The notes: generated from the sequence alone by a model not told the origin. Numbered from the stretch's first letter, positions 48,749-64,000 are shown. The stretch is 64,000 bases of DNA from a virus (IMGVR_UViG_3300027708_000015); one strand, 5' to 3'. Made by a program: numbers and translations.

Positions 48749-51418
48749 TTAGAACTCAAATAATGAATTAAAAGTATTCTTTTCTTCTGTACTGGCAACA
48801 TCCCATTTGAGAACACCAATCAAGTTATCTAGTTTATTATCAATAATGGTCTGTTCCATTTCTGCATGATCAAACGGCAAGTCTTTGAACCATTGTGGCA
48901 GTCGTAGTTCATCTACAGGATATGCAACTGATGTAAAGCCCAGGGGGTTGGGTTTGAGTTTACACACAATAACCTTGGCACCGTCGGTAATGGCCATTGA
49001 ATACTTGTCATCATACATGCGCTTGAGTGTGTTCCAGTTGATACTGGCACGAACATGTCCAGGCATGTTGGCTTTGCCCTGTTTCTTTTCCTTGGCCTGA
49101 TACTCTGTGATGTTGTTGGCACGTTTAGGACTACCTTTTTCCCAACCTGGTCGAGCTTTGAATTTGATACGGAATTCGCTGATATGGTCAAGCACTTCCT
49201 GTTCAGGCTTGCCCATCAATACCATTTCAAGAACATCGCTTAAAAAGTTTTGAATAAATTCCGGAGTGTCACTGCGCTTCAAATCCAAGCCCATGGCTTT
49301 GATCTTGCCAGGCTTGCCATCTATATCCTGACGTTTACCTTCTTTGTCATATGACAGCACTGCATAACGCTTCTTGGTAATAAACAAGCCTTTGAGAGCA
49401 ACAATCTCGCGACCAGCTTTGATAACATCACCACGCGATTTAGGCACATGAAATGCGTCCAGCATAAACTGCGGGAATGTTTGATTGACTTCGTCACCTA
49501 TTTGATCATACAGTTGGATCACAGTTTCTTTTGTCCAAGGAATCAGTCCAGCTTCGATGTCTTTTTGTAGTGTTTTGTAAGCTGAGAAGTAACAGGAGTC
49601 AGTGTCACCATAGATAACTGCCTTACCTATGTGATTGTATTCGCCTGTTACAATTTCATTTACTTTACTCGCCATATGTTTTGCGATTTGGCGCCCGACC
49701 AGCGTTGTTGATTGTCCGATTCGTTTATCAAAGAATCTGCAACCGCTGTTAAGAATAGCACCGTACAGGCTATTAAGATTAATTTTCTTAACAAGCTGTC
49801 GCTTATCCCAGTATTCTTCTTCGACTTTGTTTCCTGCATTGATAGACTCCTTTAGTTTGGCCTGCATCTCTTTACGTTCTGCATACCAGCGTTTAAGTAG
49901 CCCCGGAATGATACCTTCATTTTCGTGACTGAAGATAGTGCCATTACTTGAAAGCATCCAGGGCTGATTGCTTTCAAATATCAATCTATATACTTCTGCG
50001 GCACTGATCACATCGACATCACCGTTTTCCCAATCAATAGTGATGTCAGTGCCAATTTCTTGATTCATCACTGATTCGTATTCATGTGTGCCGAACTTGC
50101 CTTCCCACGCGGCCGCAAAACTCTTGTTCTGCGCCATCTTGAGTTCAATGTATTCGTCAGTGCGTGTTTGACGTAGCTGTCCAATAATGGTTTCTGGACC
50201 CATGTTGAGTGCTCTAATGGCGCTGGGATAAAGACTGTTGATGTCTAGTGAGCCGATCCAATCTTGCAATCCTTCTTTGGGATGTGCCACATAAGCACCA
50301 GCTGCCGCTGTGTTCTCATCTCTATCGTCTTTCTTGATACGATTGGGAACAACAAATCCTCTGCGGTGAGCTTCATTGATAATGGCCTGCTCGGTCACAG
50401 CCACAGCACCCATTGTGGTTTGTAGCAACACAGTATTTTCATGTGCCAATGTATTGGCTAGATCCATGAACTTGAGTTTCTTATCTAATTTTTCAAGAAG
50501 CATACAGTCGTTGATGTTGTATTCAACGAACGTTTTAAAATCGTTGTTGTACAGTTGATCCAGTGTGCCTTCGTACTGTGTTTTGCGCTCACCCAGTTCA
50601 TATTCTGCGATAGCATCTAGCCTGTAGGTGTGACGTTCTTCATAGGTGTACTTGCGATACAGTTCAAGGTAGTCTAGATGTACACGACCAATGTAGTCAT
50701 AGGTCACACTGTCACGACCGTATTTTTCATATTCTCTGCGTTTGGGAAATTGATCGAATAAACAAAACCTACGTGTGTCTTCTTTGCTCAGTGCTTTGAC
50801 TACACGGTTAGTGGTATAGGGAATATCAAAGCCTTCCGAGTTCCAGCCACTGATAACATCTGCATCTTTGATCAGATCCAAAAACATGTCCAGCAAGTCA
50901 GCTTCTTTTTCAAACAGGTACGTGTTGGGAAAGTCTTTGACCATCTCCTTGGCATCTTCCATCTTGAGACCCTTGGGCGGAATAGCTAGACAAACCATAG
51001 TTTCCATCCATTGTAGGTAAACCGCAATGGCAGTAATGGGCATAAATGCATCATCTGGCGATGCATAGCCACGCTCGGGATCAAAGTCTACCTCAATATC
51101 GAAAAATGCCACATTGAGTTTGGGAGGATCTGCGTTGAGATAATTTTCTGACAGGGTAACAAATATGGGATTGATGTCTGCTTCATACAGAGTCTTGCCA
51201 CTGTTGATGGCTTGTTCTTTACGAAGTTCTTTGGTATTTTTACAAACGATCCGTTGTACAGGATCTCCGTATATGGAGGTGTGTTTGCCTCTAGGATCTT
51301 TTACATAGAAAGTGTGACGAACAGGAATATCACGGAACTCCCTTTCACCTTTCTTGTTGCGTTCAACGATCTTGATGATGTCGTTGTCGCGGTCAAACCA
51401 TGCGTCTACGTAAGACAT
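48749..51418 (-). CDS. polB: Family B DNA polymerase (T4 gp43-like)
   Basis: Exo motifs FFDIEVD, GWNSEGFDIPY, YNINDC; polymerase motifs LDINSLYPS, KINLNSLYG, YGDTDS, KKRY. Confidence 0.97.
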   Translation of the reverse strand: MSYVDAWFDRDNDIIKIVERNKKGEREFRDIPVRHTFYVKDPRGKHTSIYGDPVQRIVCKNTKELRKEQAINSGKTLYEADINPIFVTLSENYLNADPPKLNVAFFDIEVDFDPERGYASPDDAFMPITAIAVYLQWMETMVCLAIPPKGLKMEDAKEMVKDFPNTYLFEKEADLLDMFLDLIKDADVISGWNSEGFDIPYTTNRVVKALSKEDTRRFCLFDQFPKRREYEKYGRDSVTYDYIGRVHLDYLELYRKYTYEERHTYRLDAIAEYELGERKTQYEGTLDQLYNNDFKTFVEYNINDCMLLEKLDKKLKFMDLANTLAHENTVLLQTTMGAVAVTEQAIINEAHRRGFVVPNRIKKDDRDENTAAAGAYVAHPKEGLQDWIGSLDINSLYPSAIRALNMGPETIIGQLRQTRTDEYIELKMAQNKSFAAAWEGKFGTHEYESVMNQEIGTDITIDWENGDVDVISAAEVYRLIFESNQPWMLSSNGTIFSHENEGIIPGLLKRWYAERKEMQAKLKESINAGNKVEEEYWDKRQLVKKINLNSLYGAILNSGCRFFDKRIGQSTTLVGRQIAKHMASKVNEIVTGEYNHIGKAVIYGDTDSCYFSAYKTLQKDIEAGLIPWTKETVIQLYDQIGDEVNQTFPQFMLDAFHVPKSRGDVIKAGREIVALKGLFITKKRYAVLSYDKEGKRQDIDGKPGKIKAMGLDLKRSDTPEFIQNFLSDVLEMVLMGKPEQEVLDHISEFRIKFKARPGWEKGSPKRANNITEYQAKEKKQGKANMPGHVRASINWNTLKRMYDDKYSMAITDGAKVIVCKLKPNPLGFTSVAYPVDELRLPQWFKDLPFDHAEMEQTIIDNKLDNLIGVLKWDVASTEEKNTFNSLFEF

Positions 51419-51494: not shown

Positions 51495-52079
51495 TTACTC
51501 TGCAAATCCAGCAGTGAATTTTTCTGGCAATGTGTTGAATGAAATAGTAATTCTAGTAGCATTGCCGTAATGTCCGTCTGTATAGTGTTGTACATAACTT
51601 GGAAAAATCACCATTAACCCCTGCTTTGGTGTTATAGTAAGTCTATCAAAATTATTGACAATTGGAATCTCTATACTTGACAAGCTTCTAGCGTACACTG
51701 GGTCTAGGAATTTAGTATCTGCACCTTCACTGATGTAAATTATTCCACTCCACAACGAGTTAGGATGTCTGTGTACTGAATGCCCACCACCACTTCCGGC
51801 TAGTGAAATATTTGCCCACATTCTAGAAATTTTAATTTTTCCAAAATTTTGATCATGTATTTCATAATCTTGAATCTCTTGCAAACATAAATTCACCCAA
51901 TCGACCAAAAACTTCCAACTAGGATCTTTGTGCAATTCTTGATTATATGTTTGATTCAAACTGGGGTAGTTATGACTAATGCCGTTAGGCTCCGAAGCCA
52001 GTTTAATGTTAACTGCCTCGGAAATTTCAGGATTAGTGAAAGAATAAAATGATACAGGAAAACAGTTACTAACTTCCAT
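51495..52079 (-). CDS. Putative 2OG-Fe(II) oxygenase (TIGR02466-like)
   Basis: HRHPNSLWSGIIYI, PKQGLMVIFPSYVQH, RITISFN. Confidence 0.8.
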   Translation of the reverse strand: MEVSNCFPVSFYSFTNPEISEAVNIKLASEPNGISHNYPSLNQTYNQELHKDPSWKFLVDWVNLCLQEIQDYEIHDQNFGKIKISRMWANISLAGSGGGHSVHRHPNSLWSGIIYISEGADTKFLDPVYARSLSSIEIPIVNNFDRLTITPKQGLMVIFPSYVQHYTDGHYGNATRITISFNTLPEKFTAGFAE

Positions 52080-52336
52080 TAGATTTTTTTGGTAATATCT
52101 AAAATAGCTTCAATTTCTGCCCAGTCTTCATTGTGACTGGTCCAATCGCCTTTGTGTGCAATCTTGATAGCACGGTTGATAACTGATGGCTTGATTTGTA
52201 ATTCTTCTGCCACTGCCTTGACTGTTTCTTTTAGGCCTTCTGATAGGTCTTCTACTTCACGAAGTACTGTAGATCCTTCGTTGATCAATCGTTCTAGTTT
52301 TGCCTTTTCTTCTGGCCCGTAATTGCGTCCTGACAT
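52079..52336 (-). CDS. T4 DsbA-like double-stranded DNA-binding protein
   Basis: 85-aa helical protein, LKETVKAVAEELQIKPSVINRAIKIAHK pattern; follows a perfect sigma70 promoter. Confidence 0.65.
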   Translation of the reverse strand: MSGRNYGPEEKAKLERLINEGSTVLREVEDLSEGLKETVKAVAEELQIKPSVINRAIKIAHKGDWTSHNEDWAEIEAILDITKKI

Positions 52337-52357
52337 GAATTATCTCCTATATTGCCT

Positions 52358-52386
52358 ATTATATACTAATTATCTGTACTTGTCAA
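52358..52386 (-). promoter_or_regulatory. Perfect sigma70 consensus promoter for the DsbA-like/oxygenase/polymerase operon
   Basis: Minus strand TTGACA agtacagataattagta TATAAT. Confidence 0.85.
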
Positions 52387-52399
52387 ATTTTAGAGGTGG

Positions 52400-52425
52400 A
52401 AATGGCAGAAATTAATCTGCCATTT
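52400..52425. terminator. 10-bp inverted repeat ending the late internal-protein block
   Basis: AAATGGCAGA-aattaa-TCTGCCATTT, immediately downstream of the 52430 stop codon. Confidence 0.7.
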
Positions 52426-52429
52426 GACT

Positions 52430-54964
52430 TTAACCGCGAGCTATTTTGAGCCAGCGATTTAGTTCTGCATCAGCTGATTCGGCTTGTTGCATGTAATTGC
52501 CCGACGGACCACCGTCCATTCTCATACCTGATTTTACGTTGCCCGGTAAACTTACAGTACCACTCATATTGACACCTGCTGGTGCTGGATTAGCATTTTG
52601 TTCACTACCTGTTGGTTGAGTACAACCGGCCAACGCCGCGTCCATAACTTCTTGTGCTCGGGCAAGAGCTTGCGCAACTGCCGCATCTTGTACCTCACCG
52701 CCCATCGGCCCACCGCCATTTTCTTTGTTCAATGCAGTCATTTCGTCTTTGATCTGTCTAATTAGATCCATTTGTTCTAGACTACACATAGGTTTAGCAT
52801 CAGGTGCTGGATTAGGATTCACAACTGTGCTGTCTGGTACACAGCTCTTGCCATCTGTGCCTAGTTTGTATCCTGGCGGACATTTGCCATCCGGACCTGG
52901 GGGAATTGTTGTTGTAGTTGTAGTTGTTGTGTTATCGTTTTCGTGTCCACCAGCTAGTAGACCACCTATTCCGATTAAACCTAGCAGTCCGAGAAGGCCT
53001 GTTGACCATTTTGCTCGACCTTTGTTACGTTCCCACCATGTACCAATGGCTTTCTTGTCACCAGTTTTTACAGCGGCATCTAATTCTTTAGCAACAACTG
53101 GACTTACTTCTTTTTCCACTTGAGCAATCACTTTTGGCGCAGCCGTTTTTTCTGCGGCTGTTATTGGGCCAGCACCATTGACATGTATGTTAATTACCGG
53201 ATTGGCATTTTGTGTTATGTTTCCGCCGTTGACTGAAGAACTGCTGTTATTGCTGACGTTATTTCTTACTGTTGGTTCTTTTGGCGCAGGAATCCTTTTC
53301 TCTACTTTAGATATGTTCTTATTCAGCGCCGCCGAAAATGCCGCATCAAACTCTTTCTGGGTCATTTTCATTACATCGGCGGCACCTATGCCTAGCATTT
53401 TTTCGATGAATTTGGCACTAGCGTCACTTCCTGGTACACGTGACGCTTCGTCTAATCTACTCAGACGTTTTTTCAGCTCAGACATCTTTTCAGATTCAGT
53501 TAATGGAACTTGTTTAGCATTATCGAATGCTTCATTGATCTCCATAATTTTACCCATAAAATCTAGTGTTGCTGGATCCAGCTTGCCGGTTTGCGGTAGC
53601 CCTGCTTTGGCCTGACTTTGTTTTATGATGGCTGGATTCATGTTAATAAGTTTATCTACCAATGGCTGTGTAACACCGGTAGTGGCTTTATCGTGAATGG
53701 CCTTGGTTATATCTGCAACCACCGCAGTACCAAAGTTGACTCCAGCGTCGATACCTAAACGAGCCATACCTTTTAGTAAACCGCCGCCCCTTACTAATCC
53801 GTTAGCGACCAGTCCTCCGGGGATAGGTGCGCCAATGGTTCCTGCAATATCACCTACGTCGTAGGCGTTGACTTTGAATGTTTTGTCAGCACCCAGCTTG
53901 TCACCTAACCATGTTTGATATAATGGGTTATTAAATTCAGCGGAGCTTGATTGTGATTTGGCTCTAGCAGTATTGGCCATCTCTTTGCCCAATGCTGTTT
54001 TATAATCTTTCTCAATACCCAATCCTGCTTTGGCACCAGCAAGTATGTTGTCGCCATAACCGAATGTCAACCCGTTGCCAAGCCCTCGAGCGCCTGCTCC
54101 CACATCAGTGGTAAATTGATTCATGCTGTATTCATCTAGATCAGTTTCGTATCCGAAACTTTCTACCAGTGCGTTACCTAGTCCTAAGCTGAATGACTCT
54201 GCCTGTGTTGAGCTGTTGGCATTATTTTGAACATTCGCATTTGCCTGTGTAGCGGATTTTCCAACATTGGGGAACTGTTTGGCAATGTCGGGATATTTTT
54301 GCATTGCGCCAATAGTTTCTGGCCCTAGCTTACCATCTGCATGATATTTGGGCAATGCATTGGGATCCTTTTGTAGGATAGCGTTTTGCATCTTTTGTAC
54401 TTCGGCATCAAATTTCAAGTTGGGTTGTGGCACAGTACCAGTATTAGTACCAGCATTAGGGTCAGCTTGACCAGTTGTACTAGTTGGAGGTGGTTTTACA
54501 ACATCTGGTTGTTTGACCGGATCTGGTTTGGCTACCTTCAGTTTTGATAACAGCTCACCCAGTTTTGCGATATGCTCTTGATTGAATTCACGATGATCTT
54601 CAGCTGTATTGTATTGCGCACTTTGATCACGGATTTGCTTGTCATACGTGTCGCCACTTACGCCACTTATTCTTCCTAGGAAAGATGAACTGTGTGAATT
54701 AGGAGGAATAAGTCCTTTTGATTGAAGTTTCATGTCAACGTCTTTGCTAGGAACACTGCCACGACTACCTGAGCTGGTGACAAATTCACCGTCGACCGGA
54801 TCATACAATCCTGGCAACTGATTCTTAACTGCTAGGTCAGCAATAATTTTTGCTCGAGCATTGGGATCAGTATTTTGCCCAACTGCGGCCTGAACATCTT
54901 TTAGACGAAATTCGTCCAACTGCTCAATACTTTCTAATCTTGTCATTAGGTCTCTAATATTCAT
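52430..54964 (-). CDS. Probable internal virion/ejection protein with two peptidoglycan-binding-like modules and a TM helix
   Basis: EVQKMQNAI...ADGKLGPETIGAM and QSQAKAGLPQTGKLDPATL (PG_binding_1-like); GLGNGLTFGYGD; TM WSTGLLGLLGLIGIGGLLAG; CPPGYKLGTDGKSC; upstream AATAAATA. Confidence 0.6.
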   Translation of the reverse strand: MNIRDLMTRLESIEQLDEFRLKDVQAAVGQNTDPNARAKIIADLAVKNQLPGLYDPVDGEFVTSSGSRGSVPSKDVDMKLQSKGLIPPNSHSSSFLGRISGVSGDTYDKQIRDQSAQYNTAEDHREFNQEHIAKLGELLSKLKVAKPDPVKQPDVVKPPPTSTTGQADPNAGTNTGTVPQPNLKFDAEVQKMQNAILQKDPNALPKYHADGKLGPETIGAMQKYPDIAKQFPNVGKSATQANANVQNNANSSTQAESFSLGLGNALVESFGYETDLDEYSMNQFTTDVGAGARGLGNGLTFGYGDNILAGAKAGLGIEKDYKTALGKEMANTARAKSQSSSAEFNNPLYQTWLGDKLGADKTFKVNAYDVGDIAGTIGAPIPGGLVANGLVRGGGLLKGMARLGIDAGVNFGTAVVADITKAIHDKATTGVTQPLVDKLINMNPAIIKQSQAKAGLPQTGKLDPATLDFMGKIMEINEAFDNAKQVPLTESEKMSELKKRLSRLDEASRVPGSDASAKFIEKMLGIGAADVMKMTQKEFDAAFSAALNKNISKVEKRIPAPKEPTVRNNVSNNSSSSVNGGNITQNANPVINIHVNGAGPITAAEKTAAPKVIAQVEKEVSPVVAKELDAAVKTGDKKAIGTWWERNKGRAKWSTGLLGLLGLIGIGGLLAGGHENDNTTTTTTTTIPPGPDGKCPPGYKLGTDGKSCVPDSTVVNPNPAPDAKPMCSLEQMDLIRQIKDEMTALNKENGGGPMGGEVQDAAVAQALARAQEVMDAALAGCTQPTGSEQNANPAPAGVNMSGTVSLPGNVKSGMRMDGGPSGNYMQQAESADAELNRWLKIARG

Positions 54965-54992
54965 GTCTTTTTCCTATATCGTACAATGTACT

Positions 54993-55000
54993 TATTTATT
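54993..55000 (-). promoter_or_regulatory. T4-like late promoter motif (AATAAATA)
   Basis: Overlaps the upstream stop, ahead of the 844-aa gene. Confidence 0.5.
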
Positions 55001-57065
55001 CTAAGTGTTTACTGATTTGAGAGCGACGCTTGGGAGCTACACCCTTGCCGGTTTGCCTAGCTTGCTTTAGCTGTTCTATCCCGTGTGCTATCTGTGCCGC
55101 ACGTCCGGCCAGTGTTTGCATAACTCCGCCAGTGGTAAATTCCTGCGCGATACGTTGCCATAACAGCAGTTTGCTGGACAAGTCCATGTTCTGCATACTT
55201 TTAACGTCATCAGCCAGTCTAATTATGTCATGGTTGGCCATGTTGATCACAGTTTCCAACGGATGTGTATTGGCTTTGCCGTGGCTAACGTCGGGATTAT
55301 GTACATCTCTATCAGGTTGATCGAACATAGGACTTTCTGTTAATCCATGTTGTTTGTACAAGTGATGCAGTTCGTCATCTGTTGCATGCTCTAGATCGCT
55401 GAGATCTATACCTGCTCGTTTGCTTATACGACGCATCATACGATATCGTTTCATTGGCTCCATAGTGCTTGGCGCTTCCTCTAATCCCAGCTGATCACGA
55501 CCGTCATGATCTAGCACATTGTCCTGTGGACCAGGGCCTGTACTTAATATTTTGGCATGTGATAATTCACGTGTGGTGTATTCGTTGAATGGCATTTCAC
55601 CCTGCAGAGGTAGACTTTGTTGTGATGTAGGCACTGGTGCTTTGAGAAATCCCCTTAATGATCCGGGATCATGTATGATGTCGTTTTCAATAGCGGTGCG
55701 CATTTCGGGAGTACCATGCATGTGATGTGTTATCAGTTTGCCTATTTCGTTTCTCGGGATAGTCAGTTCGTATCCTGTGGGATATTGAACTATTGCTGCC
55801 TGCGATCCTTTTGAATAGGATGCTACTAGATCTTTCCACAAGGCAGAACCAGCTTTGATAACTGCTCCTGCAATAGCACTGCGAGCATCTTCAGCTACGG
55901 TATCTGCTGTATTAGGCACGCCTTTTTTGATATTGTTGAGATGGTTACTGGTTTTTTCATGCCCGGCCAATAGACTTTGAATGTATGCAGATGCAGGATT
56001 ATCAGGATGGTGCAGATTAGCTAGATCATTGTTGGGTGAAGATGCTACTCGAGACCTTGTCGGTAATCCTTTGATATTGGGAATAGCATGCTGTCCAGTC
56101 ATTTGTGCAACAGTTTGTGCAAACGGATTCACAGCTGGCGTCTCGGGCTGACTAGTAGTAGGTGTTGGAACTGTTGCTTTCACAGCACGTGGTGCCGTCG
56201 CCGGTTGAGAGCTAGCAGTAGTTTGTGTTACTGCTCTAGGTTGTGCTGTTGCTGTGGTCTTTGGTTTGGCTTTGGGTTGTGCGGCTACTGCGGCTACTGC
56301 GGGTGATTGGGTTGATGATTGGGTCGGCTCAGCATGTCGCATCTTTTCAGGCTCAACATCGTGTTTATGTTGTTTAGCTATCTCACCTTTTTCAGTGTCA
56401 TGGTGTCGCTCTATCTCTTGTGCCGCTACTGCCGCATCTTGCTGTGTAACTTCGCCACTGGCAACCTTGGCATTTAGATCACGGAATCTTTCCTCAGTAT
56501 TGGCCAGCAGGTCCTGTAGCTGGGTATACATATCCATCTGGCGATCTATAGTTACCTGTTGCTGTTTAGCAGTATCTGCCAGTTCGCTGGCAGCGGCAGC
56601 CATTGCTTCTATATCTCCTTCGTCTCCGGGACTCATCTGATGAGCCTGTTGTAGGAAACGATTTGCCTTAACACTTAATTTATTTGTATTGAGTTTGTGT
56701 CCGTGTTCTTTATCGTCATGGTCACGTTCTTTGAACTCGCGCATCAGTACACGTTCAGCTATAGTTTGACTATACTGTCTTAATAGCTGTTGTTTGTTGG
56801 TTTTTTCTTCTGCAACTTCTTGTTCAACCTCGTGGAAAAACTTACGAATACCGGTATTTGTAAACTTTTTCTTTTCTATTTGGGGAGTTTGCTGATAGTG
56901 TTGCATTGCCATTTGTACTGGCAAAGACACTTTGTGAGGATTAGTTGCTTCGTTGAGAATCTCGACATCGTTTTTATCAATCACTGATAGAAACTTGGCC
57001 ATGCTGTCAGCACCTACTACAGGCTTTGTAGCAACTCCATCCATCGCCTGTAGTATGCGCTTCAT
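54996..57065 (-). CDS. Probable internal head protein with coiled coil and P/T/A/Q-rich linker
   Basis: MKRILQAMDG start (ATG at 57065; the track uses GTG 57071); repeated [ILVMF]xE sites. Confidence 0.55.
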   Translation of the reverse strand: MKRILQAMDGVATKPVVGADSMAKFLSVIDKNDVEILNEATNPHKVSLPVQMAMQHYQQTPQIEKKKFTNTGIRKFFHEVEQEVAEEKTNKQQLLRQYSQTIAERVLMREFKERDHDDKEHGHKLNTNKLSVKANRFLQQAHQMSPGDEGDIEAMAAAASELADTAKQQQVTIDRQMDMYTQLQDLLANTEERFRDLNAKVASGEVTQQDAAVAAQEIERHHDTEKGEIAKQHKHDVEPEKMRHAEPTQSSTQSPAVAAVAAQPKAKPKTTATAQPRAVTQTTASSQPATAPRAVKATVPTPTTSQPETPAVNPFAQTVAQMTGQHAIPNIKGLPTRSRVASSPNNDLANLHHPDNPASAYIQSLLAGHEKTSNHLNNIKKGVPNTADTVAEDARSAIAGAVIKAGSALWKDLVASYSKGSQAAIVQYPTGYELTIPRNEIGKLITHHMHGTPEMRTAIENDIIHDPGSLRGFLKAPVPTSQQSLPLQGEMPFNEYTTRELSHAKILSTGPGPQDNVLDHDGRDQLGLEEAPSTMEPMKRYRMMRRISKRAGIDLSDLEHATDDELHHLYKQHGLTESPMFDQPDRDVHNPDVSHGKANTHPLETVINMANHDIIRLADDVKSMQNMDLSSKLLLWQRIAQEFTTGGVMQTLAGRAAQIAHGIEQLKQARQTGKGVAPKRRSQISKHLE

Positions 57066-57077
57066 GTCCACGGAGGA

Positions 57078-58724
57078 TTACCCCAATAGACGTTGTGTCA
57101 ATGCACGGATTTGATCAACTTCGCGGTTTTCAACTAGAGCTGGAGTTTCATTACGATTTAAACGAGCCAGTTGTTCTTGCATGCGAGTAAAATCTGTTGA
57201 CTCTGGAATTGGCTTTCCTGGTTTAACTGGTAGGGTTTTACCGCCTACATTCATTGTGGTGTCGCCATTTTCACGAGCGGCTTTCAACTTACCGGTCAAC
57301 TCATTGCCGCCTTCGTCGGCCATCTTGTCGCCTTTGGACAACTTGTCTTTCTTTTCAATAGCTTTCTTCTCGGCCATGTAAGCTGTAGTTTCTTTGATAT
57401 TCTTCCACATAGCGGCAGCGGCAATCTTCTTGCCTTTTTCACCACCGCCTGCACTCTTGGCCACTTTGTCAAAACTCTTACCTGGTTTGCCGATGTCACC
57501 ACCTGCTTTAGCTTTTTTAACTACTGCTGATTTCTTAGCGGCACTTAGACCTGCACTTGGCTTACCTTCTGCCATTGGTGCTGGCATCATTGATGGACTG
57601 CACTCATACATCTGTCCACCTTGGATAGCTGGGTGGCTGTGATAGCATTCACCCATTGCACCGTGACTAATCTTTCCACCACACTTTTGGCACTCATCTT
57701 TGTGATGTTTCATCAAATCAATATTGCCTGCTTTATGATGTTTGGAATATTCACTAGCATGATGATGAGCCAGTTCAGCTGGACTCATGTCTTCCTTTAG
57801 CTTCTTTTTGGTCAAATCATTTTTGCCCTTGCCATCTGCCGCAAATGCTGGCACACTTTTGCCATTGACTTTCTTCATTGGCATGCTGCCTTCTGGGATC
57901 AATTCATCATCACTGCTTTTGTTCATGCGTTTGATGGCGGCTTGCGTGGCCTTCATCTTGGTATGGTATGCTTCTGCTTTGGCAACTGCCGATGGGTGCG
58001 CACGATCTCTTGCAGGAGCTTTGGCCACATGACCTTCTCCACCGCAATGTGGGCATGGCTCTGACATGCCTTCACCTAGATCTTTGTCTTTGCTGGCACC
58101 GTGACCTTTGAAGCTGTCTGAATATTGTTTTTCGTGACGTTTGCTGTCGTCTTTGTTGTTGAGTTTGGTCACTTTGCCGCCTTTGGCAGTTTTATAAGTG
58201 TCACCTTCTTTGGCACGATTGTCAAAATCATCTTTGTTATCGTGTTCTTTGCCTTCTTTCATATCGTCACATGTGCATTTCTTAGCTGGTTTATGACAGC
58301 CTGAACATGTACTTTCCATCTTCATTTTTTCAGCTTGAGTCTTTTTAAGGTCTTTCATTTTATCTTTGGCTTCACTCAATAGATTGATAAGATGATTTCG
58401 TTGGCCTTCACTTAGAGTGTGCATGGTTTCAGCATCGCTTAGATGTTTGCTGTAGTCATTGAATTTCATTTCGTACTCAAGATAGTGATATACTGATGCA
58501 ATATAGTCAGCTGCCTTGGTTACCTTAGCTTGAACCCATGATTCTAATTGATCATCATCATGAAGCTGTTCGAACAACTTTTTACTGTAGCTCGCTAGTT
58601 TGTATAGATCTGCTTTAGCCATTTTACCCTGTTGCTCCTTTTCTTCTGGTGATAATTCTAAATGATGATTTGCAACATCATCTTGACCGCCCATTGCTGG
58701 GTCCATATTATCTAAATCTGCCAT
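57078..58724 (-). CDS. Probable internal head polyprotein (Lys/His-rich, many [ILM]xE sites)
   Basis: GKMAKADL...WVQAKVTKAADYIASVYHYLEYE module, K-rich peptides, CxxC knuckles; upstream GCTAAATA. Confidence 0.6.
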   Translation of the reverse strand: MADLDNMDPAMGGQDDVANHHLELSPEEKEQQGKMAKADLYKLASYSKKLFEQLHDDDQLESWVQAKVTKAADYIASVYHYLEYEMKFNDYSKHLSDAETMHTLSEGQRNHLINLLSEAKDKMKDLKKTQAEKMKMESTCSGCHKPAKKCTCDDMKEGKEHDNKDDFDNRAKEGDTYKTAKGGKVTKLNNKDDSKRHEKQYSDSFKGHGASKDKDLGEGMSEPCPHCGGEGHVAKAPARDRAHPSAVAKAEAYHTKMKATQAAIKRMNKSSDDELIPEGSMPMKKVNGKSVPAFAADGKGKNDLTKKKLKEDMSPAELAHHHASEYSKHHKAGNIDLMKHHKDECQKCGGKISHGAMGECYHSHPAIQGGQMYECSPSMMPAPMAEGKPSAGLSAAKKSAVVKKAKAGGDIGKPGKSFDKVAKSAGGGEKGKKIAAAAMWKNIKETTAYMAEKKAIEKKDKLSKGDKMADEGGNELTGKLKAARENGDTTMNVGGKTLPVKPGKPIPESTDFTRMQEQLARLNRNETPALVENREVDQIRALTQRLLG

Positions 58725-58749
58725 GTTAAACTCCGTGTTTATCTTTATG

Positions 58750-58757
58750 TATTTAGC
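58750..58757 (-). promoter_or_regulatory. T4-like late promoter motif (GCTAAATA)
   Basis: Overlaps the upstream stop, ahead of the 548-aa gene. Confidence 0.55.
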
Positions 58758-58974
58758 GTCGTTTGATGATCGCTGCCTTCTTACCGGGCTTGCTCTTTAT
58801 GTTTTCCATAGGTGCGCCAAACAAACTTACTTCGTCTTGATCCAATGCGTTAACGCTTTTTACCGGCTTATTATTGGCATTGTTAGCATAATCTGGGTTG
58901 ACCACGGTGGCTATGTTGGCACTACTGGTAGCACCCATACTGGCTGATTCATCTATTATTTCTTTGAATCTCAT
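58753..58974 (-). CDS. Small probable internal head protein
   Basis: MRFKEIIDE N-terminus followed by SASMGATSSANIAT. Confidence 0.6.
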   Translation of the reverse strand: MRFKEIIDESASMGATSSANIATVVNPDYANNANNKPVKSVNALDQDEVSLFGAPMENIKSKPGKKAAIIKRR

Positions 58975-59201
58975 CGCTTTCTTCCTCTAAACCCAGGACC
59001 TATTGCTGTTTCGCCGCCCATGAATTTGGGCAAACTGAACCATAGTTTAAACCATTCTTCTGTACCGGGTTGTATGTTTTGTTCACGTTCGATAATCTTT
59101 TTTTCTGTACCAGTTATGCTGATGTTACTGCCGCCATAAGGTTTCAAACCTGCATATTCTGTTATGCCTGCCAGTTTCCTAAGACGTGCTAGGTCATCCA
59201 T
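58971..59201 (-). CDS. Small probable internal head protein (start MDDLARL)
   Basis: ATG overlaps the dps stop (TAATG); LARLRKLAGITE motif. Confidence 0.6.
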   Translation of the reverse strand: MDDLARLRKLAGITEYAGLKPYGGSNISITGTEKKIIEREQNIQPGTEEWFKLWFSLPKFMGGETAIGPGFRGRKR

Positions 59202-59644
59202 TACTTCAAACTCGAGCGTAGCATCCAACTGTGCTTCTTGTGTGCATCTTGTCGATCAGCTAGAAAATTACTCAGTCCGTGATCTCCGTGTGCTTCAGCC
59301 ATATCAAATGTTATACGGAATATCTCCGCCATTTTTTCGCTGTCTGTTAGCAATTCTTGTAGCATACCCGTCCAGTCTGGCACATGATTTTCATCTTCCA
59401 CTGCTGTAAGCAGACTAAATCTTTGTAGGCTAGCAGGTGTGTAAACTTGCAGTGCTCGTAGATGCTCGGCAAATGGATCTATAGCACCGTATACTTCTTC
59501 ATATATGGTCTGAAACAATTCATGCAGTTGGCCAAACAACGGTCCTTCCACATTCCAGTGGAAGTTGTGTGCTTTTAGATAGAAACTAAATTCACTGGCA
59601 AATGCTGTTTTCAAACTCAAATGATATTTGTTATCGTCTTCCAT
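59201..59644 (-). CDS. dps: Dps / ferritin-like DNA protection protein
   Basis: YLKAHNFHWNVEG..F..LHELFQTIYEE...DPFAEHLRAL ferroxidase signature; HKKHSWML C-terminus. Confidence 0.93.
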   Translation of the reverse strand: MEDDNKYHLSLKTAFASEFSFYLKAHNFHWNVEGPLFGQLHELFQTIYEEVYGAIDPFAEHLRALQVYTPASLQRFSLLTAVEDENHVPDWTGMLQELLTDSEKMAEIFRITFDMAEAHGDHGLSNFLADRQDAHKKHSWMLRSSLK

Positions 59645-60060
59645 TATACACCGTATCTATTCTTTTTCTTTTGGGCCACAATGCTAGTAGTATTTGTTTC
59701 TTTTGGCTCTTGGCTACCTTTTTTAGTAATAGCTTTCAATTTAACACCCAGTGCTTTGGCACTGTGATTGATCATATCAGTGTCTACTTCGGTAAATTGC
59801 GTTAGAACCATTTCGTTAGAGGCATAGCCTTGATGCTCTGATTGATTGTGCGGACTGCCGGCCATGTGTACACCCAAACGATACATGTCATAGTAGTGAC
59901 CAGGCCAATCTGGTATTGATACCATACCGGGTATAGCGGCTTCGTGGTGATCGTGTATTTTATTGCGTTTGCCGTTGTGAACATGTCCGGGGTGAGTACC
60001 GCTTCCGTCTGTTACACCGCCGTCATCCTCTTTGAGTATTATAAATTCTTTTGCTCGCAT
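59644..60060 (-). CDS. Small probable internal head protein, paralogue of the C-terminal module of 60060-63377
   Basis: MRAKEFI...GSQEPKETNTTS...KKNRYGV versus MRAKEFL...KSQEPKDTNKTS...KRNRYGV. Confidence 0.65.
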   Translation of the reverse strand: MRAKEFIILKEDDGGVTDGSGTHPGHVHNGKRNKIHDHHEAAIPGMVSIPDWPGHYYDMYRLGVHMAGSPHNQSEHQGYASNEMVLTQFTEVDTDMINHSAKALGVKLKAITKKGSQEPKETNTTSIVAQKKKNRYGV

Positions 60061-63000
60061 TATACACCATACCTATTGCGCTTGGGCTTGTTTACAGGAC
60101 TAGTTTTATTCGTATCCTTGGGTTCTTGACTCTTGCCGCGTTTATCTAATTCTCCAGCATCACTTGGAATCGTAGCAAGAGCTTGGTACATCATCATCTG
60201 CTCTTCATCTGTGTATGGAAAAGCCACATTGTATTTTTCAACAAAACTACTGGCCGGCATATCTACAGCTTTTTTGCTCTTGCCATCGGCCATAGCAGCC
60301 GCCATCATAATACGATTTAGATGATATGTGCGATCATACCCGCCCACATCTCGCATCAAAACGCCACCGCCCTGCCCAGCATCAACTGCATGGTCGTGAC
60401 GGTTATCGGTAGGCTTTGTACTTAATTCTGCTAAAAACTCTTTTGCTCGCATTTTTCTAATCCAGCTGTTGGCTTCTTTTATATTTAGCGGATCTGCAGG
60501 CGGCTGTTCTTGTTTGTCGTGTAGTCCCATACCTTGTCTGGTTAGATTCATCAAGTGCTCAATCCATTCTTTACCTAATTTTGCCTCATCAAATCCGTGT
60601 TTCCAAATTTGATATTGTTGTTCGGGAGTACCTGATTTCAATGCGTTTCTTAAATTACTAAAACTTATACCAGTTCCCCCTGCAGCCTCGTCACGCTCTG
60701 TGATATACGGAGTTACTTTCACATGTTCATAGCCTTGGAATTTATTAACAGCCTTCATCAGGGCCGCAGCCATATTTGTTGCCATTTTAGCGCGATCTTT
60801 GCCCACTGCGATAACAATATTATCATAACGCGGGGATTTTCCTGGCAAAGGATTAATTAGTTCATGTTTGATTTTTTGTATTAATGCACCACCCTGTATC
60901 ACTGTACCTATGTTGTTTGCATATTCTGGATACAGTTTATGCCATGTTTGTACTTTTACTGCTGGGGGAATAGGATCATCTTTGCCTTCAGCATTGCCAA
61001 TAAACAAATAAGGATCCCCTCCCAATGATTTAGCCAAGGTAACAGTGTGATTCCATAATTGTTCATGCCCTTTATGCCCAACAAAACTGCCAACAGCAAC
61101 TACCGCAGTTTTGACATTGCCTCTCGGACGTTCTGTACGAGCGCTGGCCTTGGCAGCATTTTTACCTGCAATGACTGCACGTTGCTCAGCACTGGTAACT
61201 TTGATAGGGCCTAATCTGCTGTTGATAACTATACCTTCGTAGTCTTGCCCTAATAGGTCTTTGCCTAAAATGTTGGGATCGTTAATGATAGCCTTTTCTA
61301 ATTCCAATGCAATCGGCTGTAGAATTTCTTTGGCTTCACGTTTTAGTGCCAGTTTGCCGCTGGACAGCATCGCTTTGATCTGTTCAATGTTTTCCATCGG
61401 CGGAACAATAGCAGTAACATCCAATGCTTGGCTTTGTGTTAAACTGTTGTTAATAAACATCACACTGCCTTGTTGTCCAAGCCCTGTTAATTTCTTAACC
61501 ACTTGGTTGCTATCGGGCAGTGCTTCCCCGGTTGATGCATCGCTGACATGGAAAGGAACAAGCGCCAGCTGTATACCGTCTGGCAATCGATCATATTCGA
61601 TACCTACAAATCTCAATTTACCTTCTGGAGTTTCTGTAGCAAATGGCAGAAATAATACTTCGCAGGTCACTTGCTTGTTGACTAAAAAATCTTGCCCTAA
61701 TTTACTGTCAACTAGCTCAACTGCTTTCATCATTTCGTTAAACAAATCATCAAACATTTTTGCACGGCCCAGTATGTCCGTATCTTGTGTGCCTTTTTCT
61801 TGATGATACTTTAAGAATGTTGCTTCATAGCGCGGAGGAGTTCGACTAGTACCCATAAAAGGTTTGCCATCTGAATTTTTACCAAATCGACCACCGAAGC
61901 CGTCTACTTTTACATTCAATGGAATATTTTGCAATTTAAAGTTTCCGTTGCCGTCGTGAATCTCATCTAGGAGATCTAACAAATCCATTGGTTTTAAATC
62001 ACGAAGATGTGGCATGCCTTTACGCAGTTGTGCCTGTACTTCTGCTTCGTTCAACTGTTGCCCACCGTGCCAATCTGGCCAAGTACCATTGGCTACAGCA
62101 ATCTTTCTTTCACGACCATACTGTATCTTTTTACCTGCTTGATCTGGTCTAGGTTTATATTGGCGTTTAAAGTTTTCTAAGTCTAAATAATCTCCCTCGT
62201 ATTCTCTAGCCATTTCAACAGCCATGGGCCTTAGATTTGTTAGTTTTAGTTTTTCTAACATCTGATCAATAGCGGCGAATTTGATATCCCCATCAGCCTT
62301 AGGATCGTCGCGTTCGATCATTTGACTACCGGGCTCGAAACATATTTCAAAGAAACGTTGCATGGTTTCTTGTTTTTGTCTTTCAGTTAGGTATTTGCCT
62401 ACTAGATCAACAGTGCCTAAAAAAGTCCATTGTAGTTTGCTATCTTCCGGAGTAGGCTCGTGACCAAATAGTTTTGCAAACTGACTTTGCAAATTTTGAT
62501 CGTATGGTCTATCTTTAACTTCAACAGGCTTTACTACCGGCAGTTCCTCTTTGGAATTATCTGGATGCGGCAAATGTCGTTGTTCACCAGTCTTTTCATC
62601 GTTAACTGGCCCATATGGCTCACTTAGTCCGCCGCCTTGTTTACCCGATACACCGAATGAATATTTTTGAACCCAGTCCGGAGCTACAACGTCGACCTTG
62701 TTCTTGCCTCTTCCGGTACCAGTTTGCACTTGAGCATGTATTTTTATAGCACCAGCTAGGGCTCTATAGAGATATTTGTGGAACACACCTTTGATACCAG
62801 CTGTCAAGTCACTCCACTCTGAGCTGTGACTAAATCTAAACCAATCAGTGGGTTTACCATCTTGGTACTCGCCGAACTCAAAATCTATCTGTATTTTTAT
62901 TGGAGGATTACTAAACTGAAATAGACCATTATACTGTTCGTTACCACTACCAAACCCTAAAAATACAGTATCACCAATTTGTTTATTTGTGTGGCTTGTT

Positions 63001-63377
63001 AAGAAATCTCTAACTTGCGGTTCTAAATCTCTATCTACTTGTGTATCAATATCACCGACCTTGGGTTTATACTGTGTAAATTCCTCATCACTAACACCTT
63101 CTGTATTAAAAAAGTGTAAACTGCTACCACTTAGGAATTCTCTGCTGGTCAATAAGTCAGGTTCCCATAAGTTCTTTCTTGTCTGTTTATGAAATGCTAG
63201 ATTGATATCGTGCAGTAACTTATTTAAAAGTCCAACCATAAAGGTGCGGTTATGCACTTTTAAATCTATCTTGTCAGCATAATGTACTGGTTCGCCTTTC
63301 TCAGCATCTCCGATACTTAGGTTACCACCTTCGATAATAATTCGTCTGGGACTGATAAACAGCTCGCGTAGTAGCAT
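60060..63377 (-). CDS. Multidomain protein: Pol-beta-type nucleotidyltransferase + KxDG ligase-like domain + HIGH-family nucleotidyltransferase + C-terminal module
   Basis: FLSGSS...GDIDTQVD...IQIDFEF; PHLRDL...NVKVDG...TCEVLF...YEGIVI...IKVT; VAVGSFVGHKGH...ISFSNLRNAL. Confidence 0.75.
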   Translation of the reverse strand: MLLRELFISPRRIIIEGGNLSIGDAEKGEPVHYADKIDLKVHNRTFMVGLLNKLLHDINLAFHKQTRKNLWEPDLLTSREFLSGSSLHFFNTEGVSDEEFTQYKPKVGDIDTQVDRDLEPQVRDFLTSHTNKQIGDTVFLGFGSGNEQYNGLFQFSNPPIKIQIDFEFGEYQDGKPTDWFRFSHSSEWSDLTAGIKGVFHKYLYRALAGAIKIHAQVQTGTGRGKNKVDVVAPDWVQKYSFGVSGKQGGGLSEPYGPVNDEKTGEQRHLPHPDNSKEELPVVKPVEVKDRPYDQNLQSQFAKLFGHEPTPEDSKLQWTFLGTVDLVGKYLTERQKQETMQRFFEICFEPGSQMIERDDPKADGDIKFAAIDQMLEKLKLTNLRPMAVEMAREYEGDYLDLENFKRQYKPRPDQAGKKIQYGRERKIAVANGTWPDWHGGQQLNEAEVQAQLRKGMPHLRDLKPMDLLDLLDEIHDGNGNFKLQNIPLNVKVDGFGGRFGKNSDGKPFMGTSRTPPRYEATFLKYHQEKGTQDTDILGRAKMFDDLFNEMMKAVELVDSKLGQDFLVNKQVTCEVLFLPFATETPEGKLRFVGIEYDRLPDGIQLALVPFHVSDASTGEALPDSNQVVKKLTGLGQQGSVMFINNSLTQSQALDVTAIVPPMENIEQIKAMLSSGKLALKREAKEILQPIALELEKAIINDPNILGKDLLGQDYEGIVINSRLGPIKVTSAEQRAVIAGKNAAKASARTERPRGNVKTAVVAVGSFVGHKGHEQLWNHTVTLAKSLGGDPYLFIGNAEGKDDPIPPAVKVQTWHKLYPEYANNIGTVIQGGALIQKIKHELINPLPGKSPRYDNIVIAVGKDRAKMATNMAAALMKAVNKFQGYEHVKVTPYITERDEAAGGTGISFSNLRNALKSGTPEQQYQIWKHGFDEAKLGKEWIEHLMNLTRQGMGLHDKQEQPPADPLNIKEANSWIRKMRAKEFLAELSTKPTDNRHDHAVDAGQGGGVLMRDVGGYDRTYHLNRIMMAAAMADGKSKKAVDMPASSFVEKYNVAFPYTDEEQMMMYQALATIPSDAGELDKRGKSQEPKDTNKTSPVNKPKRNRYGV

Positions 63378-63379
63378 GT

Positions 63380-63754
63380 TTAGTCCTTGTACTTGCCTTC
63401 GGCGTGGTGTTGATCGTGCTCGTCGTATAACAGTTCACATACTTGCTTAACAGTATCTTCGTCCAGTTCGTCTGGTAATTCACGGATAGGAAATTTTCTG
63501 ACATACACTCTGTATGCATCTTTTACTGCTTCGCTGAAAATTGCAGGTTTAGGATGACCTTTGCCTTCCTTCATATCGAGGAATTTAGCCAGGGCCGGAT
63601 ATGTGTAACGACGATAGCAATGATCATCGTGGTCCATGTAATGTGCTATGTCTTCGGCTAGATCGTAATCGATAACTCGTTGTCCATCGTCTTCGTGTTT
63701 TACGAAGTCTGTATCTTTGAAGAAATTACCTTCTAATAGTTCTCTTAAGCGCAT
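63380..63754 (-). CDS. Small probable internal head protein
   Basis: MRLRELLE N-terminus; upstream GATAAATA. Confidence 0.6.
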   Translation of the reverse strand: MRLRELLEGNFFKDTDFVKHEDDGQRVIDYDLAEDIAHYMDHDDHCYRRYTYPALAKFLDMKEGKGHPKPAIFSEAVKDAYRVYVRKFPIRELPDELDEDTVKQVCELLYDEHDQHHAEGKYKD

Positions 63755-63800
63755 TTTTAAGCCCGTTTAAATAAATCAGCAGAAGACTCTGCAGTTAGAG

Positions 63801-63808
63801 TATTTATC
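63801..63808 (-). promoter_or_regulatory. T4-like late promoter motif (GATAAATA)
   Basis: Intergenic, upstream of the 63754 operon. Confidence 0.55.
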
Positions 63809-63811
63809 GCT

Positions 63812-64000
63812 TTAGCTTTTAACAATGCGTTCTATTTTGGAGATACTTTCGCCTAGATGCATCTTGACTATCAAAAGATTGTTATCACCTGTGACATAGC
63901 AGTGTGTGCCACCCCAACTGCGCTGTTTTCCTAGATCTCTTATACAGCTTTTGGTCAGTTTGCACTTGGGACTAGTTTCAGCCCACTCAACAAACGCAGG
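63812..64000 (-). CDS. 3' end of a hypothetical protein, truncated by the window edge
   Basis: Open frame PAFVEWAETSPKCKLTKSC...ISKIERIVKS* from base 64000 to the stop at 63812. Confidence 0.55.
   Translation of the reverse strand, partial: PAFVEWAETSPKCKLTKSCIRDLGKQRSWGGTHCYVTGDNNLLIVKMHLGESISKIERIVKS

Follow-up and report, generated by a model that had tools for sequence, protein, structure and literature searches.

What do the nine genes lying between a dnaJ-def-clpA operon and the DNA polymerase of an uncultured phage encode, and where would their products end up? The genes form a minus-strand block at positions 52430-63754 of IMGVR_UViG_3300027708_000015, whose 64,000-nucleotide stretch analyzed here we call the window, and encode, in order, proteins of 124, 1105, 138, 147 (Dps), 76, 73, 548, 691, and 844 amino acids (aa). 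By comparison of its DNA polymerase, the source is an uncultured freshwater T4-superfamily jumbo phage. A sequence-only reading had described the block as a late locus whose proteins carry T4-like capsid-targeting N-termini and many prohead-protease sites, and are packaged, matured, and injected with the DNA. Our analysis points to a related, although modified, answer: the block probably encodes capsid-targeted, protease-trimmed proteins, through a variant of the T4 internal-protein scheme based on several motifs that mimic head proteins. Most of the block proteins carry labels copied from proteins that build the head, and for that reason they are probably loaded into the capsid and trimmed there by the head protease.

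An N-terminal tag common to five block proteins

Five block proteins with unrelated bodies begin with a tag of the pattern M-[RKL]-x-[RK]-[ED]-[LFI]-[LFI], ending in (L/I)-x-E. The six N-termini quoted in the sequence-only reading (MRLRELLE, MLLRELF...IIIE, MRAKEFIILKE, MRFKEIIDE, MDDLARLRKLAGITE, and MNIRDLM...QLDE) are all present on the minus strand, and the tags end ELLE↓G, IIIE↓G, ILKE↓D, IIDE↓S, and QLDE↓F (the arrow marks the putative cut). To score the tag independently of the window, we trained a matrix on the ~80-aa protein encoded between the portal and an acidic core protein (also described as lying between portal and protease) in 43 related loci, which begins M-x-[LIFV]-x-[EDQ]-[LIFMV], typically MILRELF, in all but one of them (42/43). 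The five tagged block proteins take the top 5 ranks among the 61 window proteins, at 14.5 (1105 aa), 7.1 (124 aa), 2.9 (844 aa), 2.5 (73 aa), and -1.6 (138 aa) bits, while the best non-block protein scores -2.0 and the median is -13.9; by our own arithmetic, block proteins would hold all five ranks by chance with a probability of ~2e-5. Thus, the claim that the block carries capsid-targeting N-termini stands for a tag that is far beyond chance and falls for the rest: MDDLARLRKLAGITE copies the C-terminus of a scaffold protein, as described below, and the Dps and 548-aa proteins are untagged.

The same matrix places N-termini from other phages above every non-block N-terminus, including the propeptide of T4 gp24, MAKINELLRE (sequence verified; +2.9), the tag of the Campylobacter phages IBB_35 and CP220, and that of Phosso gp328, whose gene comes directly after the Phosso protease gene. 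The codons of the tag differ from gene to gene, which indicates selection on the peptide rather than on the DNA. The two tagged bodies that we modeled, a Pol-beta fold and a four-helix domain, are unrelated in fold, and tagged and untagged members coexist in both of the corresponding families. For the four-helix family, represented by the 124-aa protein (63380..63754; tag MRLRELLE, second-best tag score), we found 173 representative clusters, most of them tagged (MKIFELF, MRIxELLE, or similar) and ~8 untagged. In the AlphaFold2 model of the 124-aa protein (predicted local distance difference test [pLDDT], 85.6), residues 1-13 are coil and the first ten residues average only 53; a Foldseek search of the fold against the PDB returned no match.

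A protease-type boundary in the 1105-aa nucleotidyltransferase protein

The highest-scoring tag, MLLRELFISPRRIIIE, occupies residues 1-16 (63330-63377, minus strand) of the 1105-aa, 122-kDa multidomain protein (60060..63377), which, with PHROG matches in support, comprises the tag, a Pol-beta-fold domain, a segment resembling cytidylyltransferases (residues about 740-959), and, at the C-terminus, a "...NRYGV" module. Across the family of the first domain, 104 distinct N-terminal extensions of 8-24 aa precede a conserved GGN. The residue directly before GGN (P1) is Glu in 102 of them; P3 is Leu in 65, Ile in 38, and Val in 1; and P2 takes 17 residue identities. With Leu or Ile at P3, Glu at P1, and P2 free, the boundary fits the (L/I)-x-E cleavage rule of the T4 prohead protease gp21 (PMC9026906). 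Three homologues start directly at MGGN, with no extension; in Vibrio phage Va1 (L002:3998-5152), a stop codon is found seven codons upstream of that start. Va1, which has a gp21-type protease, is a natural untagged control. Some distant family members begin MIKTYQQFLLE or MFRFKEFIAE.

Structural prediction separates the extension from the enzyme in the same place. The AlphaFold2 model of the first domain has a pLDDT of 92.9, with values below 50 only at residues 1-16, which are the extension. Nearly all of its top 50 Foldseek matches are family-X polymerases, with DNA polymerase beta the best (probability up to 1.0, although the matches are weak by E-value, ~2e-3, and by template-modeling score, 0.2-0.35), and the G-S ... 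D-x-D signature of the Pol-beta palm fold is invariant, as G84-S85 and D109-x-D111. On the strength of the model, the first domain is a Pol-beta-fold nucleotidyltransferase. Toward the other end of the protein, a second tag, MRAKEFLAE (residues 976-984; 60426..60452, minus strand), heads the fused "...NRYGV" module and is preceded by NIKE↓A. It is kept in all four orthologues that carry the module (those of the window, L011, L013, and L007), for example as NIKE↓ANSWIRKMRAKEFLAE↓L.

One tagged homologue has been found in virions. Gene 1-56 of Campylobacter phage vB_CcoM-IBB_35 encodes a homologue of the first domain (29% identity, E 6e-27) whose N-terminus, MKLSELMFILE↓GGN, has the same tag architecture, and its product is among 38 virion proteins identified by electrospray ionization tandem mass spectrometry, at 17% coverage (PMC3322345, Table S2). 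This protein and its counterpart in CP220, gp100, differ from the 1105-aa protein in being single-domain, 388-aa proteins in phages of 170-180 kb.

Copies of other head-protein motifs

The 73-aa protein (58753..58974), which is basic and reads MRFKEIIDE↓SASMGATSSANIATV, follows its tag with a copy of the mature N-terminus of the capsid protein. By BLASTP, its residues 4-24 align with residues 36-56 of the major capsid protein (MCP) of the clade (RKYLSE↓SATAGATSAGNVATL; E 1e-4), and the MCP site in turn aligns opposite FLTE↓AEIGG of T4 gp23, which is cut after residue 65 (PMC9026906). Of the 120 close capsid proteins listed, 82 fit a strict search pattern, with [RK][KR]YL[SAQ]E↓[ST]A[ST][AS]GATSAG at the site; at least 8000 close relatives of one such capsid protein are in the protein database. 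When a database of 79 sequences was searched with an MCP hidden Markov model (HMM), three orthologues of the 73-aa protein were the top 3 matches.

A comparable case exists in T4 itself. Residues 2-38 of T4 gp61.1 (54 aa, phrog_1823) match gp23 residues 57-93 (E 6e-9), so that gp61.1, like the 73-aa protein, is small and combines a targeting-like tag with a copy of the maturation-cut segment of its own capsid protein. The two proteins nevertheless have no detectable homology (the 73-aa protein matches phrog_17311, weakly, and not phrog_1823), and their genes lie in different places, the 73-aa gene in the cargo block and gene 61.1 beside the primase gene.

The second mimic is in the basic 76-aa protein (58971..59201; ATG at 59201, in an open reading frame [ORF] spanning 58971-59228), which starts MDDLARLRKLAGITE and contains DLARLRKLAGI, a copy of the scaffold C-terminus. 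Clade scaffolds carry LAG within their last 12 residues in 61 of 62 cases, and 60 of the 62 fit a loose [RK][RK]LAG[LI]. On a matrix of scaffold C-termini, DLARLRKLAGI is the single best match in the window, at 15.2 bits, against 2.2 for the next and 9.4 for the 95th percentile of shuffles; in L007 and L009, the 76-aa orthologues have the C-terminal domain without the motif. We take MDDLARLRKLAGITE to be, by its sequence, a scaffold-tail copy and not a T4-type capsid-targeting sequence. Weaker "L.R...LA" motifs at the C-termini of the 548- and 844-aa proteins were also considered as scaffold-tail copies and rejected, as they had no score on the same matrix.

A third resemblance involves the "...NRYGV" family, whose tail motif, [ND]-[TK]-[KT]-S-[PI]-V-[NA] plus a basic run, occurs only twice in the six-frame translation of the window (59687-59707 and 60103-60123, minus strand). 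One occurrence is in the 138-aa protein (59644..60060), which is paralogous to the C-terminal end of the 1105-aa protein and in which a variable body lies between the tag MRAKEFIILKE and a conserved C-terminal tail, ...N-T-T-S-I-V-A...NRYGV. In five related loci (L024, L028, L032, L045, and L048), the acidic, gp67-like core protein ends in a similar sequence (..NKTSPVAK), and the motif may be a further prohead-binding one. An HMM of the prohead core protein also has the 138-aa protein as its best match in the window (E 0.002, in a small database), with the 691-aa protein among the best, while full-length scaffold and small-protein HMMs had no significant match in the window. Compared with scaffold and core proteins of the clade (gp22, gp67, and gp68 type), the block proteins match in short tail and terminal motifs only, and the block adjoins the DNA polymerase rather than the head module.

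Internal cleavage-like sites

The many internal [ILMVF]-x-E sites followed by G, A, S, or D that the sequence-only reading had pointed to were compared with shuffled sequences, for the nine block proteins and for the other 52 window proteins. The block has 43 [LI]xE sites against 29.5 expected, and the other proteins have 131 against 99.7; the excess is thus a general property of the window proteins. Sites with G/A/S/D next are in excess in the block (28 versus 16.7, p 0.004) and not clearly so elsewhere (58 versus 48.8, p 0.12), and this excess is confined to the 548-aa protein (16 versus 7.3, p 0.001, for [LIVMF]xE) and the 124-aa protein (8 versus 3.0), where several sites fall in conserved motifs of the fold. 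Measured against background, as had been proposed, the internal sites therefore hold up for these two proteins and are no more frequent than in shuffles for the other seven.

Conservation was also considered for the longer proteins. In the 548-aa protein (57078..58724), which is untagged and Lys/Glu-rich, with a conserved N-terminal helical domain, a hypervariable Lys/Glu-rich middle, and a conserved C-terminal peptide, 4-5 xxE sites are kept in 5/5 orthologues. In the 691-aa protein (54996..57071), an alignment of five orthologues revealed a conserved leader (MDMKRILQAMD...) followed by a junction, [IL]-x-E↓[GA]-x-NPHKVSLPVQMAMQHYQ, that is present in all five in the form [IL]-x-E↓[GA]xNPHKV. 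These patterns in the two sequences are suggestive, nothing more. The L013 orthologue of the 691-aa protein (L013:16690-18399) has an insertion of ~290 aa between the leader and the NPHKV junction, including a peptidoglycan-binding-like stretch in which Pfam did not call such a domain. Shuffling of modules among the cargo proteins appears to take place.

Other proteins of the block

The 844-aa protein (52430..54964), which has the third-best tag score, begins with the leader MNIRDLMTRLESIEQLDE, kept in L007, and combines a peptidoglycan-binding-like module (PG_binding_1, E 1e-5, just over the cut-off), Gly-rich helices, and a hydrophobic helix (residues 653-673). We found no signal peptide in it. 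Peptidoglycan-binding modules on a protein with no signal peptide fit delivery by the virion, which would explain how such a protein gains access to the cell wall. In P0219 and P0226, which are distantly related, a tag-like start is combined with a strong PG_binding_1 domain (E 1e-20) and a domain like that of the 124-aa protein.

The 147-aa protein (59201..59644) is Dps/ferritin-like (PF00210, E 3.4e-22, 79.3 bits against a gathering cut-off of 24.5; phrog_3636), and its gene is translationally coupled on both sides. It is present in L011 and L013 and missing from L007 and L009. For the 124-, 138-, 76-, 548-, and 691-aa proteins, neither Pfam nor PHROGs returned a family, and a look-up of the 138-aa protein in the ESM Atlas gave sub-threshold matches only.

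Transcription signals and genomic setting

The first six genes of the block are translationally coupled, and ATAAATA-type boxes lie 26-54 nucleotides (nt) upstream of the 124-, 548-, and 844-aa genes. These late-promoter-like boxes, all on the minus strand, are GATAAATA (63801..63808), 47 nt upstream of the 124-aa gene; GCTAAATA (58750..58757), 26-33 nt upstream of the 548-aa gene; and AATAAATA (54993..55000), 36 nt upstream of the 844-aa gene. The TAAATA hexamers reported earlier end at 63801, 58750, and 54993, just as described. The 7-mer ATAAATA occurs in 7 copies in the 64 kb, all of them 8-56 nt upstream of a gene start on the same strand; one of the genes so preceded is tail-fibre-like. 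A perfect TTGACA-17-TATAAT promoter, the only 12/12 match within 52000-64000, follows the block at 52358-52386 (minus strand) and serves a DsbA-like gene (52079-52336, minus strand; 85 aa, a homologue of T4 DsbA, PF11126 in relatives), after which come a 194-aa gene and the DNA polymerase. With a sigma-70 promoter directly after the block, an early dsbA-polymerase unit appears to abut a late-looking cargo block, and since the ATAAATA-type boxes lie upstream of block genes and the sigma-70 promoter comes only after them, the motifs make a late-block reading of 52430-63754 reasonable. Two hairpins lie near these signals. At the block end, an 8-bp hairpin (52402-52423, minus strand) lies 3' of the 844-aa gene and was not called as a terminator. 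Between the first late-type box and the ATG of the 124-aa gene is a weak hairpin with 5 bp of G+C and a T-rich tail (63779-63792, minus strand), which may be a terminator of the upstream clpA operon or the 5' end of a late transcript.

The family-B DNA polymerase (48749-51418, minus strand) is 50% identical to the Phosso enzyme (Phosso being a Sinorhizobium jumbo phage); for Atu_ph07 and the E. coli 121Q group, the figure is 44-45%. Megablast of the block against cultured phages gave no match at the DNA level. A paper on "moraphages" (PMC12619734) was set aside, as it concerns a different lineage. In relatives, the position of the locus is constant, between the dnaJ-def-clpA operon and dsbA-polymerase, and the locus is syntenic with varying gene content; L011 has three additional MRAKEF...NRYGV paralogues at the locus, and L013 lacks the 844-aa gene. 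The Phosso genes upstream of the polymerase are fibre-like, with no homology to the block. At the other end of the window, a single ORF of more than 4457 codons (1-13428, plus strand) runs off the window start, and tail-fibre and baseplate-like genes (PHROG tail families) lie 3' of it.

Head modules were examined in relatives. Five related IMG/VR fragments (7-33% complete) contain no protease gene, capsid gene, or head module. Using a gp21-type protease profile, we gathered 80 head-module loci of the clade, the source phage not among them; the protease is present in all 80, and no MKVTEII ORF is found in any of them. Phosso, CP220, and Va1 each encode a Peptidase_S77 (gp21) protease. In Phosso, the nearest relative in culture, two genes annotated as hypothetical lie directly 3' of the prohead protease gene (L021:13145-13660, starting MRASELFE) and directly 3' of the portal gene (L021:9361-9603, starting MRYNEF). 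Two other loci (L063:733-1167 plus the subsequent gap, and L045:1697-2125) share an order of a gp46-like gene, a small GIY-YIG nuclease, a gene-free gap, a tagged protein (MKLYEVLLE), the tape measure, and the portal.

A model of capsid loading by head-protein mimicry

We propose that the block is a variable late locus, most of whose products would assemble together with the prohead core, undergo trimming by a head protease of the gp21 type, and end inside the capsid. Targeting would rely on short linear motifs that reproduce parts of the proteins with which the phage assembles its head. The first is the N-terminal tag, common to the portal-adjacent small protein and resembling the T4 gp24 propeptide; the second is the copy of the capsid maturation site, in the 73-aa protein; the third is the copy of the scaffold C-terminal LRKLAGI, in the 76-aa protein; and a fourth, possibly, is the tail motif common to the acidic core protein and the "...NRYGV" family. 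Among the cargo would be the 122-kDa multidomain nucleotidyltransferase protein, small proteins of basic character, and large ones bearing peptidoglycan-binding and membrane-helix modules. In this phage, the proteins would be packaged, cut at their E↓ boundaries, ejected into the host, and active there. As to the earlier claim of capsid-packaged, matured proteins, it is upheld in so far as modular tags on unrelated folds, an (L/I)-x-E end, a match to head proteins, and one virion homologue go, and has to be given up as a description of all nine proteins.

A more ambitious proposal is that these motifs form a combinatorial "head-assembly mimicry" code able to load arbitrary cargo, drawing on at least three sources (the portal-adjacent protein, the capsid maturation site, and the scaffold C-terminus, perhaps with the core tail), and that the cargo, a 122-kDa three-enzyme nucleotidyl-transfer chain together with envelope-active proteins, is delivered with 7-deazaguanine-modified DNA. 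We regard this extension, read from the sequences, as tentative and rather doubtful in its full form.

Several observations weigh against even the simpler proposal of capsid loading and trimming. The motifs of head proteins were taken from relatives and not from the protease, scaffold, and capsid genes of the source phage itself. The HMM E-values of the mimic motifs are marginal and come from the 79-sequence database. The Dps and 548-aa proteins are untagged, seven proteins have no excess of xxE sites, and in distant 124-aa family members an (L/I)-x-E site does not always come after the tag. Va1 has the protease and an untagged homologue, which indicates that the enzyme need not be packaged. 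Mass spectrometry of virions can pick up contaminants. Finally, the T4 internal-protein sequence MKTYQEFIAE, whose coding sequence in the T4 genome we confirmed twice, scores -5 to -9 on the tag matrix; the likeness to it asserted in the sequence-only reading does not hold, the tags being closer to the gp24 propeptide MAKINELLRE.

The most serious competing explanation is that the tagged proteins are auxiliary parts of the core or scaffold, degraded and expelled before DNA packaging, so that little is delivered. In T4, gp22, gp67, and gp68 are prohead parts that are chopped up and expelled before DNA is packaged. Such a fate would best suit the small basic proteins together with those of 548 and 691 aa. 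The 548-aa protein has a low-complexity, Lys/Glu-rich sequence with twice the expected number of xxE sites, 4-5 of them kept in all orthologues; the 138- and 691-aa proteins are the best window matches of the core-protein HMM; and the copied motifs come from scaffold, core, and capsid proteins. However, unlike essential scaffold genes, those of the block lie at a distance from the head module, and close relatives differ in which of them they have; the block also encodes large folded enzymes, its peptidoglycan-binding and membrane modules make sense only outside the capsid, and the IBB_35 homologue was detected in mature virions. Taken as an account of the block, this explanation is unlikely.

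Could the N-terminal motif instead address another machine or compartment, such as DnaJ-deformylase-ClpA or a site on the membrane, leaving the proteins in the late cytoplasm or envelope and never in the capsid? The block does begin directly after the dnaJ-def-clpA operon in every relative, and the direct virion evidence is from a phage other than the source. Yet the same tag is on the small protein between portal and protease in 42/43 loci, and in Phosso on the gene after the protease; the boundary obeys the gp21 rule (P3 L/I, P1 E); the mimicry of a capsid site and a scaffold tail singles out the head; and one tagged homologue is a virion protein. An address outside the head is, on this evidence, improbable. 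That the N-terminal likeness reflects chance, or a general bias of phage N-termini toward Lys/Arg at position 2 and amphipathic helices, is scarcely credible, for although many proteins start Met-Lys or Met-Arg and the window proteins as a whole have an excess of [LI]xE, the idea is already contradicted by the tag-matrix ranking (no non-block protein exceeds -2.0 on an independent matrix, with four block proteins at 2.5 to 14.5 and the fifth, MRAKEF..., still higher at -1.6) and by the boundary statistics (P3 and P1 invariant while P2 and extension length vary), and two unrelated families hold both tagged and untagged members.

Comparison with known systems

The proposed capsid loading by mimicry of head proteins finds its nearest precedent in the T4 internal proteins, whose capsid-targeting sequence was reportedly the subject of work by Mullaney and Black in 1996. 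IPI, IPII, IPIII, and Alt of T4 each carry that sequence and are processed by the gp21 prohead protease (PMC9026906, PMC3012670). As there, a short N-terminal propeptide ending in (L/I)-x-E sits on unrelated proteins, the genes are in a variable locus, and the cargo combines an enzyme (Alt in T4, the nucleotidyltransferase here) with small basic proteins; the source is, moreover, a T4-superfamily phage whose relatives all have an S77 protease. The block departs from the T4 system in having a tag that differs from MKTYQEFIAE, cargo that is larger (up to 122 kDa) and multidomain, with internal tags retained, and motifs beyond the N-terminal tag, and in being known from sequence alone.

The T4 sequence nearest to the block tags (MRLRELLE and MLLRELF; MKINELLGE and MKIIELLGE in relatives) is the propeptide of the vertex protein gp24, MAKINELLRE↓S, which is removed by gp21 (PMC9026906). 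In T4 that propeptide belongs to a shell protein, whereas its counterpart in the block heads unrelated folds that are not those of capsid proteins. The ejection proteins of phiKZ, 201phi2-1, and SPN3US, which are processed by gp21-like proteases (PMC9026906, PMC7411985, PMC10052503), offer a broader parallel. There, a large set of head proteins, with big enzymes among them, enters the capsid, is cleaved behind the Glu of a short motif, and reaches the host together with the DNA. These phages, in contrast, belong to another lineage, use the cleavage motif (S/A/G)-x-E, and have no described N-terminal address label in common (PMC9026906, PMC7411985, PMC10052503).

Proteins that enter the host along with phage DNA act ahead of all phage gene expression, and those of T4 include an anti-restriction factor and an enzyme that reprograms the host RNA polymerase. 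The gene 61.1 product of T4 has functional look-alikes far beyond the T-even phages, and the scaffold-tail motif may represent a second, undescribed route of entry into the prohead. If the labels work as we propose, what the uncultured giant phages of this very common freshwater group carry in their capsids could be listed from sequence alone, and foreign proteins could be directed into such capsids by the same rule.

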